From a virus, in IMG/VR virus record IMGVR_UViG_3300046002_005110, positions 1-64,000 of that record: a stretch of DNA of 64,000 bases. One strand, written 5' to 3'. Positions 19,573 through 26,410 of the stretch are shown here, in pieces. A program made the position numbers and the translations under genes. The first letter of the stretch is position 1; each line of letters begins with the position of its first letter. The notes beneath the pieces were generated by a model. That model made no database searches, was not told where the DNA came from, and saw nothing but the letters and a program-made list of their open reading frames with translations.

Positions 19573-21981
19573 TTAGTTTAGCTTTGCTTCTAAAAACTTC
19601 TTTTGATTTTCCATACTAGTATCAGATAAATCTATCAACGTATCCATTTTTTCAAATAAATTATTAAACATTTCAGTAATTTTATTAGATGAATTAGTCA
19701 TCATTGATCCACTACCCAATGATGTTTTGCTTACACTTGACCCATCACCAATCTTTGATACAGATTCATCTCCGTGTAATTCTGCCAAATAACCACTTTC
19801 AGGTCCACTGAAAATACCACCTGTTCTTGCAGTTAAAGATCCAAGTTCATATCTTCCAGCACTAAAATGCATTGCATCAGATTTATTTGGCCAATCAAGA
19901 CCCCATCCTAATCCCATTGATTTAGCTGCTTGTCTTGTTCCCTCTGGCATGTCAGTTATTCTTTGAGATCCCATTGGATTTTCAGCAGGATTTATATCGA
20001 TTGCAGCGCCTCTAGAGTGATAACTGGGTGTGTTAGTTCCTGCTATATTTCTATCAGCATACCCACCTAAACTTTTTATCTTATATCCCGAAGCATCAAA
20101 CCAATCAATTAATCCTTGAAAGTTTTTAGCAAATTCAGTTGCAACTGATGTACTTTGTCCGGATTTACTTCTAATAGTCGATAATTTTACTCCTCCCGCT
20201 TCACCTGCTGATTTTGGTTCTTCGCCAGCTCCAGGTAATCTTGCACGAGTGGCATTTTCACCACCGGACACTGATGAAGGTGCAAATACACCAACTCCAG
20301 CATCTTTTTCCGCCTGTATTCTTTTAGCAGTTGCGATTGCTAATTGTTTTTGAGCCTCTTCTAGATTCTTTTTTGCTAGATACACATCACCAGACATAAC
20401 ACCGAGCTTAGTTGTGATAGAATCTACTAATGATCCTCTTATACCTCGATTTTTTCCAGTTTCACCAGATTCAGCATCTTTTAATTTTTTTCTTGCCTCA
20501 GATTCTTTTTCTATTGCCTGTCTTTCAGTCTTTTTTGCCGCCAAATGAGCAGGTAAATCTTCGCCGGCCATTTCATATAATTTTTCAGTTACAACCTCCA
20601 AACCGGTTGCCATGTGTTTCATTATTCCAGTTACAAGTTCACTACTGGTCGACATTTGTTCTATGTCTCTTCCTGCCTGTTCTAAAGCCTGTTTGGTATC
20701 AGCTAATTTTGCATTTTCACTATCTTTATCTGTTATTATCTGAGCTTGTTTTGCATTTTGTTCCTCCAACAATTTTTGAGTATCTTTATTTGCATGCATT
20801 TCAGCATTTGCTTGTTCAATAGAATACTTTCCACGAACAGTTGCATCACCATATCGTCTAGTTTCTTCAAGCGCCGCTTTTCTAGCAATTCCACTCAATC
20901 TATTAATTTCATTACGAGCGACACCAGCTTTCATTTCTCCATTTCTAAATTTTGTTAATATTGACGTTACCGCAGATGCTTGATCTCCAAAACTAGCCAA
21001 CATCTCGGCTGCTTTTGCTCTGCCTGCATCACCAGTAGTCAGATATTCTCTCATTCCTTCTTCTGTTAATTTTCCAGATTGAGCGGCTGTTAAATCAAGA
21101 AAAGTTTCATAAGTGTCTTTAAGTTTACCAGGAACATCAACCATACCTGCTCGCCAAGCCGCATCATTCATTCTGGCTTCTCTTGCGGTTTGTATATCTT
21201 TCTTACTTGCGCCAGTAATCTTACTAATAGTATCCAGTTCTTTTATATAGTTAACTGAACCTTGAATCATTTCATCTATGGTTTTCTTTTGTCCACGACC
21301 AGTACGCATCTGTTGATTAAGATAACTCAGTTGCATCTCAGAAAATTCTTCACTACTAATACCAAGTTTTTGAAAATCTCGTCTTACATCATAACTACTA
21401 ACTGATATTCTTTCAAATTCTTTTCTACCTTTTGTTGCTGATCCTGCAAATAATGCTAAATTTTTACTGTGTTTTGTTAAAATATTTTCGGACTGAGAAT
21501 AATTAAGTTGCATGGCACGTGCAGCATGTTTCATATCAGTAAAAGAAGTTACAACTCCACTATCACTTAATTTTTCGAAAGTTTGATATGATTTGTCAAA
21601 ACTCTCAACCATGAAAGAAGCAACTTCACCAACTCCTTCCGAAAATCCTTTGAGTGCTTTACCAACAAAAGGTAATCCACCCATAACTTTGCCTATGACT
21701 TTGAAACCCAATTTCATGGCATTTGTCAATGGTGCAAAACTTCCTGAGCTATTAGATAAACTTTTAGCAAATCCTGTTAGACCAGAAATAGATCCAGAAA
21801 TAGCCTTGGATAATTGCTTCTCAGATTCATTAAGTTCTTTTTCAATATCAGCACTGGTTTTTAACGAATTATCAAATATGTTATTACTTCTAGTAGTTCT
21901 TGCAATACTAGATTCAAAACTTTTTAGTTGTTTTGTGGTTTGTTCCAATTGATTTCGTAATTCATCTATTTCATTTGACAT
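19573..21981 (-). CDS. Tape-measure-like protein with M15-family peptidoglycan peptidase domain
   Basis: Long helical region; GGYADRNIAG...SYHSRGAAIDINP...WG...DAMHF; C-terminal GGIFSGPESGYLAELHGDE. Confidence 0.78.
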   Translation of the reverse strand: MSNEIDELRNQLEQTTKQLKSFESSIARTTRSNNIFDNSLKTSADIEKELNESEKQLSKAISGSISGLTGFAKSLSNSSGSFAPLTNAMKLGFKVIGKVMGGLPFVGKALKGFSEGVGEVASFMVESFDKSYQTFEKLSDSGVVTSFTDMKHAARAMQLNYSQSENILTKHSKNLALFAGSATKGRKEFERISVSSYDVRRDFQKLGISSEEFSEMQLSYLNQQMRTGRGQKKTIDEMIQGSVNYIKELDTISKITGASKKDIQTAREARMNDAAWRAGMVDVPGKLKDTYETFLDLTAAQSGKLTEEGMREYLTTGDAGRAKAAEMLASFGDQASAVTSILTKFRNGEMKAGVARNEINRLSGIARKAALEETRRYGDATVRGKYSIEQANAEMHANKDTQKLLEEQNAKQAQIITDKDSENAKLADTKQALEQAGRDIEQMSTSSELVTGIMKHMATGLEVVTEKLYEMAGEDLPAHLAAKKTERQAIEKESEARKKLKDAESGETGKNRGIRGSLVDSITTKLGVMSGDVYLAKKNLEEAQKQLAIATAKRIQAEKDAGVGVFAPSSVSGGENATRARLPGAGEEPKSAGEAGGVKLSTIRSKSGQSTSVATEFAKNFQGLIDWFDASGYKIKSLGGYADRNIAGTNTPSYHSRGAAIDINPAENPMGSQRITDMPEGTRQAAKSMGLGWGLDWPNKSDAMHFSAGRYELGSLTARTGGIFSGPESGYLAELHGDESVSKIGDGSSVSKTSLGSGSMMTNSSNKITEMFNNLFEKMDTLIDLSDTSMENQKKFLEAKLN

Positions 21982-21996
21982 GTTAATTATTCACTT

Positions 21997-24783
21997 TTAT
22001 GTTATTCCAATCATTGCAATTGTACGTTGATCGGAAATTTCACTTCTAGTCACACTAATCATTTTATCCACTTTTTTAGTCATCATAATTAAAAATTGAT
22101 TAATTATTTCATTAGAGAACGATTGATTATTAGTACCGTTAAATTGTAACTCGGCCGATCCAGAATTTACTGGAGTGACTATTTCATCACCATGTAATAT
22201 AGCCATGTATCCTGTACTTGGTCCACTGAGAATACCTCCAGTTCTTGTTTTTGGAAATGTGTTACCTGCAGAAACAGACTCTTGTACTGGTTGATTTTTT
22301 ATAAAAGATAAATCGGCAGTTTTATCAGATCCCCATTGTCCACTTTGCAAATTTCTCATGTAAGCGTCTTTTTTTCTGTCTTCAGTAATACTATTTGGAT
22401 TTCCAATACTACGAGCAACCTGAGTATATGTGTCAGCGTTTCCATATACTCTTTTATTGGCTGCCATTCCATCTTTCATCATCATAACGGCAATTTTAGC
22501 TGCAATTTTTGGATCATTAGCCAGATCAGGATTACCGACAAGATCAATTCCTAATAGTTTTCCATATTTTGCATAATTATCTTTAAAAGTTATTCCTATG
22601 AATCCACGACCACGATATTTATATCCATCTCCTGGACTAGTATTTCCATATCTACCGCCGTATATAAAATCAAAGAATTGCGCTGGATCTTTTTTTAATT
22701 TAGTAAGTTGATCATAAGACATTTTAGCAAACGCTGATCCTTGACCAAATGATTTTATAATATTTTCATTTGATGTATTTTCATAGGAAATTTCAGATTG
22801 TAATCTAAATCCAGATTCTCCTTCAGCGGTTGCGGCCATAGCGGCGCGAGTATTTGTGTCAGTTACTCCTAAATCATTCATTGCCTGTAATAGTAATTGT
22901 TGATTTTGACTTACACTAGTTGATTGAGATCCAGACGGCATTCCGCTGGTCGGAGTGCTTGATGTTCCTGCAGCATTAGGTGTTCCAGATGATGTTCCAG
23001 CAGTATTAGCAGATCCAGATGATGGGGGTGCACCAACTGTTTTTCCAAATCCTGCTTTTTGATCTTCTTCCTCTCTTATTTTTGATGCATTTTTTATTAG
23101 TTCTTCTTGTATCTTTATGTTTTCTCTATCAATCTGTATCTGTTCTTTAATATTTTTTAAGGCCCTTTCTTTATCAGAAATTAATTTTCTATTTTGTGGT
23201 GAATTAGGGTTTTTCTTAAGTTCTTCTAGTTCTTTTTCAAACTTGGCCTGTTTTGTTAAATCATTAGTAAGGTCTGCTTGAAACTTTAAGTTTTTATTAA
23301 TTGCAATACGTTCTTCTTTTCTTGCTGTCAAAAAAGCTGGAATTCCTTTATCACCAACTAAACCATATAATTTCTCAACTAAATATTCTATTCCACCAGC
23401 AACTTTATTCATTACTGTTGTCATCGTTTTACTACCAGTAGATAATTGATCAATATTTCTAGATGTTGCGTACAGTGATCTTCTAGTTCGTGCTAAATTT
23501 GCATCAGTGGTACCAGTTTCTGCTAAATCTTTTTTTCTTTTTTCATTTAGTTCTTCTTGATCTTTTAAAAGTTCAGCCTCTGATTTAAACACAGAATTTT
23601 GTGCCGCAATATATGATGCCCCAACAATATTACCATCGCCTATATATTTAACTGTATCTCTCGTAGATGATTCATAACGCTTAAGTGATTCTGTAACTTT
23701 TGCATAAAACGCATTTATGTCTCCTCCAGCTCTTAATTTTGATATTTCGGTCTCTACATCCATTCCGCCAGCTCTAAGAGCATATAATGAAGCCTGTTCT
23801 TTTTCACTAACTCCTGTTGCTTCACTGGCAATGGCATCTTGAATACCTTCTCCAAAAGCCGGAGAAAGAGCTTTAAGTCTAGGCAACAACATATCTATGT
23901 TGCCTCTTATTTTTACATCCAATGGAGCAATACCAGCCATGTATCTGGCATCTCTGGTTTGATCCATCATTTGTTCTTGAAGTTCTTTTCTAGTAACACC
24001 TGTTATCTTACTTAAGGTATCAAGTTTTTCTATATATTGTAAAGACCCAGTAGTAAGTTCTTTATCTGTTATTCTTGTTCCTAATGATAATTTTTCCTGT
24101 CTGGTGATATAATTTATTTGCATTTCAGCAAAATCTGCAGCACTAATTCCTATTTGTTGAAATGATTCTGCTACCGTTTTAGTTTCAAATGCTATATCCT
24201 GAAGACGCTTTCTTCCCTCACCTGCCGAACCTCCAAAAACTGCCAATTCTTTACTATATTTTGATAATACTTTATCAGTATCAGAAAATGTTAAGCCTAA
24301 AGTGTTAGCTGATACTTTTAAATCTTCAAACGTTGATATTACACCAGTATCAGCCAACTTTTCAAAATTACCATACGCTTTTGAAAATTGACCAATCATA
24401 AACTTAGTTATTTCGGATGCACCCTCAACTACGCCTCCAATAATATCACCTACATAAGGTATTGGAATTAGTTGAGCTGCACTACTAATTAGTTTTGCCG
24501 AAAGCATGATGGCTTGATTGATACTATCAAAACCCTCTTTACTACCACTAGCAGATGTTAGACCGACTGTTAAACGATACATATCCTTAATCGTCGATTC
24601 GGCCAATTCAATTGCTTCTTTTTTTATCGCCTGTTGTTTTTTTAATGACTCGATTGACTTTTTGTTGGCCAAATCGGCAATAGTCAGATTTTTTTCATCT
24701 AAAGATAATTGAGACGCAAAACTTCCGAAACCTGTATTAAGGTCATTAATTTCATCCGAAGTTCCTAAATTATTATCAGCCAT
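21997..24783 (-). CDS. Tape-measure-like protein with GH19 chitinase/lysozyme-like domain
   Basis: Helical region paralogous to 19573..21981; GESGF...E, YGGRYGN...GDGYKYRGRGFIGITFKDNY; C-terminal GGILSGPSTGYMAILHGDE. Confidence 0.8.
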   Translation of the reverse strand: MADNNLGTSDEINDLNTGFGSFASQLSLDEKNLTIADLANKKSIESLKKQQAIKKEAIELAESTIKDMYRLTVGLTSASGSKEGFDSINQAIMLSAKLISSAAQLIPIPYVGDIIGGVVEGASEITKFMIGQFSKAYGNFEKLADTGVISTFEDLKVSANTLGLTFSDTDKVLSKYSKELAVFGGSAGEGRKRLQDIAFETKTVAESFQQIGISAADFAEMQINYITRQEKLSLGTRITDKELTTGSLQYIEKLDTLSKITGVTRKELQEQMMDQTRDARYMAGIAPLDVKIRGNIDMLLPRLKALSPAFGEGIQDAIASEATGVSEKEQASLYALRAGGMDVETEISKLRAGGDINAFYAKVTESLKRYESSTRDTVKYIGDGNIVGASYIAAQNSVFKSEAELLKDQEELNEKRKKDLAETGTTDANLARTRRSLYATSRNIDQLSTGSKTMTTVMNKVAGGIEYLVEKLYGLVGDKGIPAFLTARKEERIAINKNLKFQADLTNDLTKQAKFEKELEELKKNPNSPQNRKLISDKERALKNIKEQIQIDRENIKIQEELIKNASKIREEEDQKAGFGKTVGAPPSSGSANTAGTSSGTPNAAGTSSTPTSGMPSGSQSTSVSQNQQLLLQAMNDLGVTDTNTRAAMAATAEGESGFRLQSEISYENTSNENIIKSFGQGSAFAKMSYDQLTKLKKDPAQFFDFIYGGRYGNTSPGDGYKYRGRGFIGITFKDNYAKYGKLLGIDLVGNPDLANDPKIAAKIAVMMMKDGMAANKRVYGNADTYTQVARSIGNPNSITEDRKKDAYMRNLQSGQWGSDKTADLSFIKNQPVQESVSAGNTFPKTRTGGILSGPSTGYMAILHGDEIVTPVNSGSAELQFNGTNNQSFSNEIINQFLIMMTKKVDKMISVTRSEISDQRTIAMIGIT

Positions 24784-24791
24784 TTTTTCTC

Positions 24792-24829
24792 ACTAAATAG
24801 TGAAGACAGTCCACTTACTATTATTTAGC
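24792..24829. promoter_or_regulatory. Pair of face-to-face late promoters
   Basis: ACTAAATA on + (24792-24799) and GCTAAATA on - (24822-24829). Confidence 0.6.
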
Positions 24830-24862
24830 CTATTATTTTTAGCACTTACAAGGAAATCAATT

Positions 24863-25690
24863 ATGTCAGATCAAAACCCATTAAAACAGTATTTTCGTAG
24901 ACCAAGTATCTATTTCAAACTTCCTAGTATGGGAAAATTTTATTCATCTGGAATTGTCAATATTCCAGAAAACGGTGAATTGCCAGTTTATCCAATGACT
25001 GCCGTAGATGAAATGACCGTTAGAACTCCAGACGGATTATTCAACGGTGCAGCAGTTGTTGATTTGATCAAAAGTTGCGTACCAAATATTATTGATCCAT
25101 GGAAATTAAATAATATTGATTTGGATGCTACTATTATTGCTATTAAAGCCGCGGCCGGAGATGGAACACTGGCAATTTCATCACAATGTCCGTCATGTAG
25201 TGAAGAAACAGAATACAATATTAACTTAATGCCAATATTAGCTAATATGAAAAATGTTGATTATGATTCTGTTATGAAAGTTAGAGATTTAGTAATAAAA
25301 TTCAGACCACTAACATATATAGAAACAAATCAAAATGGATTAGATCAGTTTAATATTCAAAAAACATTGGCCACTCTTGAAGATTATCAAGATGATGAAC
25401 AAAAAAGTCAAGTTATGACTAATACTTTAAAACGATTAGGTGATTTAGTTGTTAGTATTATTGCATCAACTATTGAATCAATATCTACACCAGAATCAGT
25501 AGTAACAGATAAAAATTACATTATTGAGTTTTTAAATAATTGTGATAAAAATACAAATAATGCCATTAAAGATCGTAGTATACAATTACGTGAACAAAAT
25601 GAATTGGATCCTATTGATATTAAATGTCCTAGCTGTGCACATGAATACAAACAAAAAATTGTATTGAACGTCACTGATTTTTTCGAATAA
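24863..25690 (+). CDS. gp26: Baseplate hub assembly protein (gp26-like) / tail assembly chaperone
   Basis: NPLKQYFRRP, YPMTAVDE, two CPSC motifs, ends DFFE. Start moved to ATG 24863 after an AAGGA SD. Confidence 0.8.
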   Translation: MSDQNPLKQYFRRPSIYFKLPSMGKFYSSGIVNIPENGELPVYPMTAVDEMTVRTPDGLFNGAAVVDLIKSCVPNIIDPWKLNNIDLDATIIAIKAAAGDGTLAISSQCPSCSEETEYNINLMPILANMKNVDYDSVMKVRDLVIKFRPLTYIETNQNGLDQFNIQKTLATLEDYQDDEQKSQVMTNTLKRLGDLVVSIIASTIESISTPESVVTDKNYIIEFLNNCDKNTNNAIKDRSIQLREQNELDPIDIKCPSCAHEYKQKIVLNVTDFFE

Positions 25691-25726
25691 GGCTTCTTCA
25701 TCTCAATCCGGATGAGATCAAGAAGC
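25678..25726 (+). promoter_or_regulatory. Candidate -1 programmed ribosomal frameshift signal
   Basis: T TTT TTC heptamer (25678-25684), 7-nt spacer, hairpin GCTTCTT-c-ATCTCA/TGAGAT-c-AAGAAGC (25692-25726). Confidence 0.72.
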
Positions 25727-25737
25727 TGACAGATGAC

Positions 25738-25914
25738 ATGGAAAAAGAAAGAATGAATATTCCGTTTAATGCTCAAAAACTAGCTTGGTTTATGAGAGGA
25801 GGAATTGATTTCAATGACATAATGAACATGAGTCATGCAGAAATTGACAATATTAATAAAATCATTGATGAACATATGGAGACTACTAAGAAAACCAAAT
25901 TACCTTTCTTCTAA
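25738..25914 (+). CDS. gp51-like small ORF, probably the -1 frameshift extension of the gp26-like gene
   Basis: 58 aa, below the ORF track cutoff: MEKERMNIPFNAQKLAWFMRGGIDFNDIMNMSHAEIDNINKIIDEHMETTKKTKLPFF. Frame is open back to the slippery site at 25678. Confidence 0.75.
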   Translation: MEKERMNIPFNAQKLAWFMRGGIDFNDIMNMSHAEIDNINKIIDEHMETTKKTKLPFF

Positions 25915-25920
25915 TATTAA

Positions 25921-26410
25921 TAGATGAACTACGTTCATCTGCCAGTGACCTATCGGTACACTGGCATTTTTATATCTTGAGATTATATATGTGAAAAGAT
26001 GTTTTGTGTCACTAAAAGCGAGTGATAACGAGCGATGTGACACAATACGGGTTGTTGAGCGTAGCGATACAACCCATTACTTAGATATGCATATAAGTAA
26101 AAACGTTTAAACTCACTGAATAAAGTACAATCACCCCCCTCTTTTTCTTCTATTAAACCAGATATTTTCTCTGGGGGAAGAACGTTCGCCGAAGCACCGA
26201 TAAAACCCATAACTATTTGTCATTGATCTGTTGACGCAGTAAAATTCCTTCCGAGAGGATGGTTACGTTTAGAGACTAGTTGCGCTTAGTATTGTCCGCG
26301 CTTTGGTCTTACTCCACAGACAGTGGTCGGATTGTCTGTAACGTTTCTAGTTAGATTAGACAGGTAATTGTTTGACCTGTGGGCTACATGATGTTTCATG
26401 TGCCTTGCTC
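25921..26410. other. Hairpin-dense non-coding block (candidate origin or structured ncRNA)
   Basis: At least nine inverted repeats in ~490 nt between convergent operons; no credible ORF. Confidence 0.55.
25940..25972 (+). terminator. Probable intrinsic terminator after the gp26/gp51-like genes
   Basis: TGCCAGTG-ACC-tatc-GGT-a-CACTGGCA followed by TTTTT. Confidence 0.55.

Follow-up and report, generated by a model that had tools for sequence, protein, structure and literature searches.

Does the gp26-like baseplate hub assembly gene of a giant T4-related phage encode a single protein, or two proteins that share their start and are separated by a programmed −1 ribosomal frameshift? The question was raised by the DNA of an uncultured lake phage: a stretch of 64,000 nucleotides (nt), positions 1 to 64,000 of the IMG/VR record IMGVR_UViG_3300046002_005110, which was analyzed as a whole and is called the window below. 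The genome is represented in IMG/VR by an 81-kb fragment that is 23% complete, and the portal, protease, major capsid, and gp46/47-type genes of this phage are T4-like. Taken together, the sequence comparisons reported here indicate that the gp26-like gene very probably yields two proteins, of 275 and 350 amino acids (aa), by a −1 slip on TTTTTTC assisted by a downstream hairpin, and that the two forms would correspond to gp26 and gp51 of T4.

Predicted frameshift signal at the 3′ end of the gp26-like gene

The elements of the locus were located as follows (ORF, open reading frame; pLDDT, predicted local distance difference test score).

24863–25690, + strand: gp26-like baseplate hub assembly gene, short form in the 0-frame, 275 aa (PF12322, phrog_150, AAGGA Shine-Dalgarno sequence, AlphaFold pLDDT 89)
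25678–25684, + strand: slippery heptamer T_TTT_TTC in the phase X_XXY_YYZ (read from the sequence; conserved in 190/190 loci)
25685–25690, + strand: 6-nt spacer GAATAA, which includes the 0-frame stop TAA at 25688–25690 (read from the sequence)
25691–25727, + strand: putative stimulatory stem-loop (RNAfold), with 25691–25698 paired to 25720–25727, 25700–25705 paired to 25713–25718, a C·C mismatch at 25699/25719, and a loop at 25706–25712
25678–25914, + strand: −1 frame ORF of 78 codons plus the stop at 25912–25914 (conserved peptide, homology to gp51 tails, AlphaFold pLDDT 85)
25738–25914, + strand: 58-aa ORF from an internal ATG (ORF list), the piece labelled 'gp51' in cyanophage records

The 275-aa protein matched PF12322 (T4_baseplate) at 2.8e-14 and 53.8 bits, with a curated cut-off of 24.5, as well as phrog_150 (baseplate hub), which bears out the gp26-like label of the initial annotation. 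In the whole-genome profile search, the same protein scored 52.8 bits against PF12322. The ORF list opens the frame at GTG 24800; ATG 24863 was taken as the real start because homologues align from there and because it is preceded by an AAGGA ribosome-binding site.

The gene ends with ACT GAT TTT TTC GAA TAA, the stop occupying 25688–25690. The initial annotation had read an in-phase slippery heptamer here, and the sequence confirms it at 25678–25684. From 25678, the −1 frame reads FFRIRLLHLNPDEIKKLTDDMEKE and, as had also been proposed, stays open into the 58-aa ORF: it runs for 78 codons to the stop at 25912–25914, is in frame with ATG 25738, and encodes a peptide of the form FF-RIRLLHLNPDEIKKLTDD-MEKE.... 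No GGAGG-type Shine-Dalgarno sequence was present 5–12 nt before ATG 25738, in line with the earlier remark that this start lacks a clear one, and the 58-aa ORF alone gave no Pfam or PHROG match. The predicted long form consists of residues 1–272 followed by the 78 codons (350 aa), and its first 274 residues are common with the short form.

Under the proposed mechanism, most ribosomes would read GAT TTT TTC GAA and terminate at TAA, releasing the 275-aa short form. A fraction would be paused by the stem-loop located 6 nt past the heptamer, and the two tRNA-Phe on UUU-UUC would then slip back by one base to UUU-UUU, re-pairing perfectly or by wobble. After the slip, Arg (CGA) would be incorporated and the −1 frame followed for 76 more codons, giving the 350-aa long form. 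The short form would be the equivalent of T4 gp26 and the long form that of gp51, for which T4 uses duplicated paralogous genes. In Escherichia coli, U_UU.Y is the second most shift-prone A-site tetramer (PMC4066793). That ribosomes really slip at this site is inferred.

RNA structure downstream of the heptamer

The stem-loop predicted by RNAfold comprises 8 base pairs (bp), a C·C mismatch, 6 bp, and a 7-nt loop, i.e., 14 bp in all. The initial annotation had described a 13-bp hairpin at 25692–25726 that began after a 7-nt gap; the hairpin is present, and its description is corrected to 14 bp at 25691–25727 after a 6-nt spacer.

Taken on its own, the fold of the 91-nt region was unremarkable (z −1.78 against dinucleotide shuffles). 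Within the gp26-like gene of the window, the hairpin was the most stable 44-nt segment (none of 148 others was as stable), and none of 100 synonymous recodings folded as stably (z −6.8). The recoding test was then applied to 78 loci, each folded singly, with 100 synonymous recodings of the same 15 codons per locus and, as a control, a region 90 nt further 3′. The 44 nt that follow the heptamer had a mean folding energy of −13.7 kcal/mol, compared with −4.8 kcal/mol for other segments of the same genes; it was the most stable segment of the gene in 35/78 loci and within the top 5% in 66/78. Native hairpins differed from their recodings by a mean z of −4.3 (control region, −0.6), and in 72 of the 78 loci five or fewer of the 100 recodings folded as well as the native sequence. 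The lower stem, GGCUUCU/AGAAGCU, was kept, with compensatory GC-to-AU (6 sequences), UA-to-CG (3), and CG-to-UA (3) changes, so that the check for covariation in the stem, proposed with the initial annotation, came out positive. Because the structure is far more stable than other segments of the genes and, unlike the control region, than its synonymous recodings, it is selected at the RNA level.

Occurrence of the heptamer among related phages

Conservation of the heptamer and of an open −1 frame in homologues had been set beforehand as a check on the frameshift. The survey covered 190 loci with 172 unique genes, which formed 18 single-linkage clusters at 50% identity and 36 at 60%. T_TTT_TTY was found at the same Phe-Phe in 190/190 loci of single-gene phages (172/172 unique genes), and the −1 frame was open in all. 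The close set of 91 complete loci had 90 TTTTTTC and one TTTTTTT, all in phase; the 0-frame stop was 3 nt past the heptamer in 88 of them, and the −1 ORF was 78 aa long in 87. Among 77 unique close relatives, TTTTTTCG had zero entropy, including three 0-frame wobble positions, compared with about 1.5 bits at neighbouring wobble sites.

By the gp26-like protein, the closest cultured relatives are the jumbo myophages Atu_ph07, Phosso, the RaK2/121Q/CBB group, PA5oct, XacN1, and SCTP-2 (24–35% identity); hundreds of uncultured relatives in IMG/VR are closer than the cultured ones. The heptamer was present in 11 cultured jumbo phages, which belong to different genera and all have a −1 ORF of 72–84 aa, and in 85 further cyanophage-type loci. 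It was also found in other T4-like families, namely in P-SSM2 (Kyanoviridae), Melnitz, OLIVR5 (Pootjesviridae), PhiW-14, and AsFcp_4 and LPCS28 (Straboviridae).

Two local variations of the signal were observed. In the Ralstonia phage RsoM2USA (L100:1960–1985), the slip run consists of nine T, with a strong hairpin of 11 bp behind it; here, slippage of the polymerase may contribute alongside that of the ribosome. Cyanophage-type and Straboviridae relatives (L105:2150–2185, L106:2135–2165, L109:2170–2200) carry a GGAGG, GAGGG, or GAGGA run about 11–17 nt 5′ of the heptamer, within conserved L-x-G-L codons, and none was seen in the clade of the window. By analogy with dnaX, this run could act as an upstream Shine-Dalgarno-like stimulator.

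Constraint on the −1 frame

The three-base periodicity of variation shifts to the −1 frame at the heptamer. The seventh heptamer base is C in about 97% of genes, though TTC is the minor Phe codon (26%); in the −1 frame, this base opens a conserved Arg codon, CGN, in which each of the four bases occurs at the third position. From the slip site on, the peptide FFR[ILMV][RKT]LL...WYMRGG...TKK..LPFF is conserved, and FFR[ILMV][RKT]LL..[NDS]PE[ED]I is kept as far as the E. coli phage A4 and RaK2, in which the main domain has 27–30% identity. Coding constraint in the −1 frame thus begins at the slip site.

No start codon precedes the conserved −1 peptide in A4 and RaK2. An ATG equivalent to that at 25738 was present in 46 of the 80 close loci and missing in 34, and the first 37 codons of the −1 frame had no ATG in 11/80 loci and no ATG, GTG, or TTG in 7/80. 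The records of RaK2, PA5oct, RsoM2USA, AsFcp_4, and LPCS28 (L097, L098, L100, L109, and L205) have no downstream ORF annotated, their −1 ORF being 59–84 codons long; other public records label it as a hypothetical protein of 46–69 aa or as 'gp51'. None of the approximately 30 GenBank records examined carried an annotation of ribosomal slippage.

Relationship to genes 26 and 51 of T4

The window protein matched PF12322, as did both T4 proteins, gp26 (208 aa) and gp51 (249 aa). T4 gp51 matched the family at 3.9e-52 over residues 1–201, and BLASTP of T4 gp26 against gp51 gave 2e-06; judged by these similarities, gp51 is a gp26 paralogue. In the whole-genome search, T4 had two PF12322 genes, and Atu_ph07, 121Q, P-SSM2, and AsFcp_4 had one each. 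The search for related loci with T4 gp26 as the query retrieved only seven, near-identical, loci.

With a hidden Markov model (HMM) of the computed fusion products, T4 gp26 aligned up to the FF junction, and T4 gp51 aligned across it into the extension. An extension-only HMM was built from 134 unique −1 extensions and searched against 487 sequences; the top five were the C-terminal tails of five T4-type gp51 proteins (E-values from 2e-7 to 5e-3, decoys at least 0.42). The hhalign comparison of the close-clade extension profile with T4 gp51 gave a spurious match only (probability 1.7%). By eye, F-KLLVNPDEI and MIPAER..VLKLIEKD of gp51 resemble FF-RIRLLHLNPDEI and NMSHAEIDNINKIIDEH of the window. 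The gp51-like label given to the downstream ORF had first been doubted, since the gene next to 26 in T4 is gene 25, not gene 51; the doubt was dropped after the homology results. In cyanophage records, this small ORF goes by the name gp51, and this annotation and the retrieval of T4-type gp51 tails uphold the label.

The short form of the window ends at a conserved Phe-Phe, as T4 gp26 does, and the predicted long form is collinear with T4 gp51 (LL.NPDEI ... P.ER...L[IV]E), although its extension is longer (76 vs. about 48 residues) and has a WYMRGG motif. T4 differs in having two diverged paralogous genes on opposite strands and no slippery site, where the window has one gene that is predicted to be recoded. 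The 'gp51 baseplate hub assembly catalyst' ORFs of the cyanophage type (P-SSM2, Melnitz, OLIVR5) agree with the extension in position, heptamer, −1 frame, and homologous peptide, whereas their records treat the piece as an independent gene of 46–57 aa.

T4 gp26 ends with EFFELL, its Phe-Phe is encoded by TTC TTT, gene 25 follows, and gene 51 is divergent. Six phages had gene 51 as a gene of its own (T4, Stupor, Skers, avDM4, PspYZU05, and a PM2-like contig); in every one of them, gene 26 was without an in-phase heptamer, and their Phe-Phe codons drift, residue changes (FV, FL) included. In an approximate FastTree phylogeny of the shared domain (30 sequences, SH-like supports, midpoint root), gp26 and gp51 were sister clades (0.94) placed beside the frameshift-type genes of AsFcp_4 and LPCS28 (0.84) and inside all other lineages with the predicted frameshift. 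The simplest history compatible with this tree would be that the frameshift is ancestral and gave way to a gene duplication within the Straboviridae.

The C-termini of T4-type gp26 proteins (T4, L012:4803–4830; L202, L203, L206) read FFELL, FVEVL, FLKIL, and FFKLM and resemble the start of the long-form extension (F-KLL in gp51). This resemblance suggests that gene 26 may be a truncated copy of an in-frame long-form gene.

Two CPSC motifs occur in the gp26-like protein (residues 109–112 and 255–258). They are 145 residues apart, nearly invariant in the family, and meet in the predicted structure, where they probably form a zinc site. In T4 gp51, the second CPSC pair is lost (CC only).

Genomic surroundings

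Three further features flank the gene.

21997–24783, − strand: 928-aa tape-measure-like virion protein with a GH19 domain, divergent neighbour (PF00182, 7.3e-07; counterparts in RaK2 and CBB)
19573–21981, − strand: second large gene, 802 aa, in the same divergent operon (weak endolysin-type PHROG match)
25922–25965, + strand: two hairpins directly after the −1 ORF stop, the second with a T-run (read from the sequence; minus-strand terminator-like site at 25940–25922)

The gp26-like gene is transcribed divergently from the two large minus-strand genes, as the initial annotation had noted; both of these are putative tape-measure genes. The RaK2 counterpart of the 928-aa protein is annotated as similar to a tape-measure protein, and the CBB counterpart, CBB_251, is a virion protein detected with 29 peptides. 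BLASTP of the 928-aa protein against T4 gp29 gave no match, and neither large neighbour had a match in the NCBIfam search. The divergent gene order was also found in RaK2, CBB, 121Q, and PA5oct.

Between the start of the 928-aa gene and the oppositely directed start of the gp26-like gene lie only 79 bp (24784–24862). The motif of T4 late promoters, TATAAATA, was not enriched, and none was found in this interval upstream of the gp26-like gene; therefore, the late promoters of this phage probably differ from those of T4. Of the two hairpins that follow the −1 ORF, the first is formed by AGATGAAC/GTTCATCT and the second by GCCAGTG/CACTGGC with the T-run. They probably mark the end of the transcription unit, which would then lie after the extension ORF, not after the 0-frame stop.

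Proposed assembly role and comparison with known recoded genes

T4 gp26 and gp51 are listed among the hub assembly chaperones; gp51 is needed yet does not occur in the particle, and the presence of gp26 is disputed (PMC3004832). The virion proteome of CBB lists CBB_251, and neither the gp26-like CBB_250 nor the downstream CBB_249. Both forms encoded by the window gene may be non-virion chaperones that act in the assembly of the central hub/tape-measure complex. In the GenBank record of the Acinetobacter phage Stupor, gp26 and gp51 are both named 'tape measure protein assembly chaperone'; since the chaperone name is already in use there, the chaperone idea is not new. The frameshift appears to be new: full-text searches of the published literature found no report of it, and the accessible part of a recoding review (PMC5009743) has neither 'baseplate' nor 'T4-like'.

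The initial annotation had gone further and called the gene pair a chaperone of the lambda G/GT type. As a functional analogy, this is retained, given the recoding logic, the tape-measure-like neighbour, and the chaperone homologues in T4; as a statement of kinship it is not, since no sequence or fold link to gpG-type chaperones was found. In lambda, G and GT are made at a ratio of 30:1, G binds the tape measure and T the tube protein, and neither is in virions, according to the same review (PMC5009743). The resemblance lies in a predicted −1 slip near the 3′ end of a small assembly gene, which would give a minor C-extended product with a common N-terminal domain, in the adjoining tape-measure-like gene, and in T4 homologues that are needed for tail assembly and of which at least gp51 is not in the virion. 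The systems differ in the heptamer (U_UUU_UUC here, G_GGA_AAG in lambda), in the larger window protein with its CxxC pairs, and in gene order, the lambda gene lying between the tube and tape-measure genes, whereas the window gene is divergent from its tape-measure-like neighbours. Lambda G/GT is thus a good analogy and the closest working model, with family membership unproven.

No tail assembly chaperone family was among the Pfam, PHROG, and NCBIfam matches. The AlphaFold model of the shared domain (pLDDT 89) had no match in the Protein Data Bank (PDB) at E ≤0.001 with Foldseek, and the wide search with VIA-align returned generic helical hairpins only. In BFVD, this model matched only gp26-type hub proteins, from many myophages. 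The extension was modelled as a helical hairpin (pLDDT 85), for which Foldseek gave no informative match in the PDB.

The BFVD matches included proteins of 400–670 aa from phiKZ-like and other jumbo phages (Erwinia Special G, Ralstonia phiRSL1, Klebsiella Eowyn) and an Ackermannviridae 'cysteine-rich protein' with a gp26-type fold.

The signal itself has a bacterial counterpart in E. coli dnaX (tau/gamma), which likewise combines a homopolymeric heptamer with a downstream stem-loop, i.e., a −1 signal of the bacterial type. The shift shortens the dnaX product, whereas here it would lengthen the product, and dnaX has an upstream Shine-Dalgarno-like stimulator, which the window lacks.

Alternative explanations

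Several observations weigh against the frameshift and were set against the evidence above. A single heptamer is weak evidence by itself, because Phe-Phe is conserved at the protein level (in T4 too) and the genomes are AT-rich; from codon usage, its chance occurrence per lineage is 0.75 × 0.74 = ~0.55. With a fixed ungapped alignment, RNAalifold predicted no consensus structure, since the register of the upper stem varies among relatives, and the fixed-register structure of the window was only 72% paired across them. No comparable hairpin was found at this position in the most distant relatives (Phosso, A4, Xoo-sp13, L007, and L010), and that of Atu_ph07 is strong but further downstream. With 81 kb sequenced and 23% completeness, a second PF12322 gene may lie outside the fragment. 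Finally, an ATG overlaps the 0-frame stop (ATGA) in 12/80 close loci and in Atu_ph07 and Phosso, and cyanophages have an ATG 4 codons past the heptamer; in such lineages, the downstream frame could also, or instead, be translated through independent or coupled initiation. The overlapping and nearby ATGs, together with the ATG available at 25738, the separate 'gp51' in cyanophage records, and the high codon-usage expectation for the heptamer, also speak for an account without any recoding, in which a small gene of its own occupies the downstream frame, with translation beginning at ATG 25738 or by termination-reinitiation at the gp26 stop, and TTTTTTC merely encodes Phe-Phe in an AT-rich genome. 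This account is very improbable. The heptamer is kept in every unique gene, over at least 18 deep clusters and with zero wobble variation, and if each of 18 independent lineages is given the ~0.55 expectation, the probability that all have it is about 2e-5. The 20 codons ahead of ATG 25738 are conserved as protein and vary in the −1 phase, a usable start is missing from part of the close loci, and the N-terminal part, though conserved, lacks a start codon in A4, RaK2, and PA5oct. ATG 25738 itself is without a Shine-Dalgarno sequence, the bases upstream of it being the 3′ arm of the hairpin. Moreover, the loss of the heptamer coincides exactly with the presence of a separate long-form gene, and T4 gp51 is a natural in-frame fusion. 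Independent or coupled initiation cannot account for the family-wide pattern.

If the RNA polymerase rather than the ribosome stuttered on the T-run, some mRNAs would have one U fewer or two more and would encode the fusion, and the same two proteins would be expected. A homopolymer run is indeed present at every locus, and that of RsoM2USA reaches nine T. However, bacterial and phage polymerases need runs of about 8–9 or more for slippage, and in about 97% of genes the run ends after only six T, with C as the next base. Neither would slippage of the polymerase need the phase-exact conservation of X_XXY_YYZ, and a hairpin conserved at the RNA level 6–7 nt downstream is a hallmark of ribosomal −1 frameshifting; transcriptional slippage as the general mechanism is therefore hardly credible. 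An objection of another kind accepts the frameshift and questions the role: the short or the long form could be a structural hub subunit or a zinc-dependent assembly factor that recruits neither tape measure nor tube. The searches showed no resemblance of the protein to known tail assembly chaperones in sequence or fold, its two CxxC pairs are a zinc-ribbon feature atypical of gpG, the gene is divergent from the tape-measure-like gene and not directly upstream of it, and some T4 genetics put gp26 in the hub (PMC3004832). Against this stand T4 gp51, which acts without entering the particle, the tabulation of gp26 as a chaperone (PMC3004832), the CBB virion proteome with CBB_251 and neither CBB_250 nor CBB_249, and the names used in the Stupor record. 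Such a role is unlikely on present evidence, while deserving more weight than a minor caveat.

Implications

Few essential tail genes of the best-studied phage are as poorly understood as 26 and 51. If the ribosomal frameshift is real, these genes would represent the two forms, short and long, of a single ancestral gene with recoding, and their role would become testable by a model in which the ratio of two chaperone forms is set. Hundreds of phage records in which the extension is called a tiny 'gp51' gene or is missed would need correction, and the locus would be an example of evolution turning one frameshift into two genes. The tail-chaperone frameshift rule would then also hold for the T4 superfamily, from cyanophages of the ocean to jumbo phages of 300–500 kb.

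Xu, Hendrix and Duda reportedly described in 2004 a conserved −1 frameshift of tail assembly chaperone genes in long-tailed phages, to which T4 is, to our knowledge, an exception. A broader reading, which we put forward tentatively and at slightly less than even odds, is that gp26/gp51 is the long-missing tail assembly chaperone of the T4 type. The ancestral G/GT-style frameshift would then persist in jumbo phages, cyanophages, and most other T4 relatives, with the short form coating the tape-measure/hub protein and the long form recruiting the next tail component, and the T4 lineage alone would have exchanged it for a duplication (26 and 51). If true, this would account for the seeming exception of T4.

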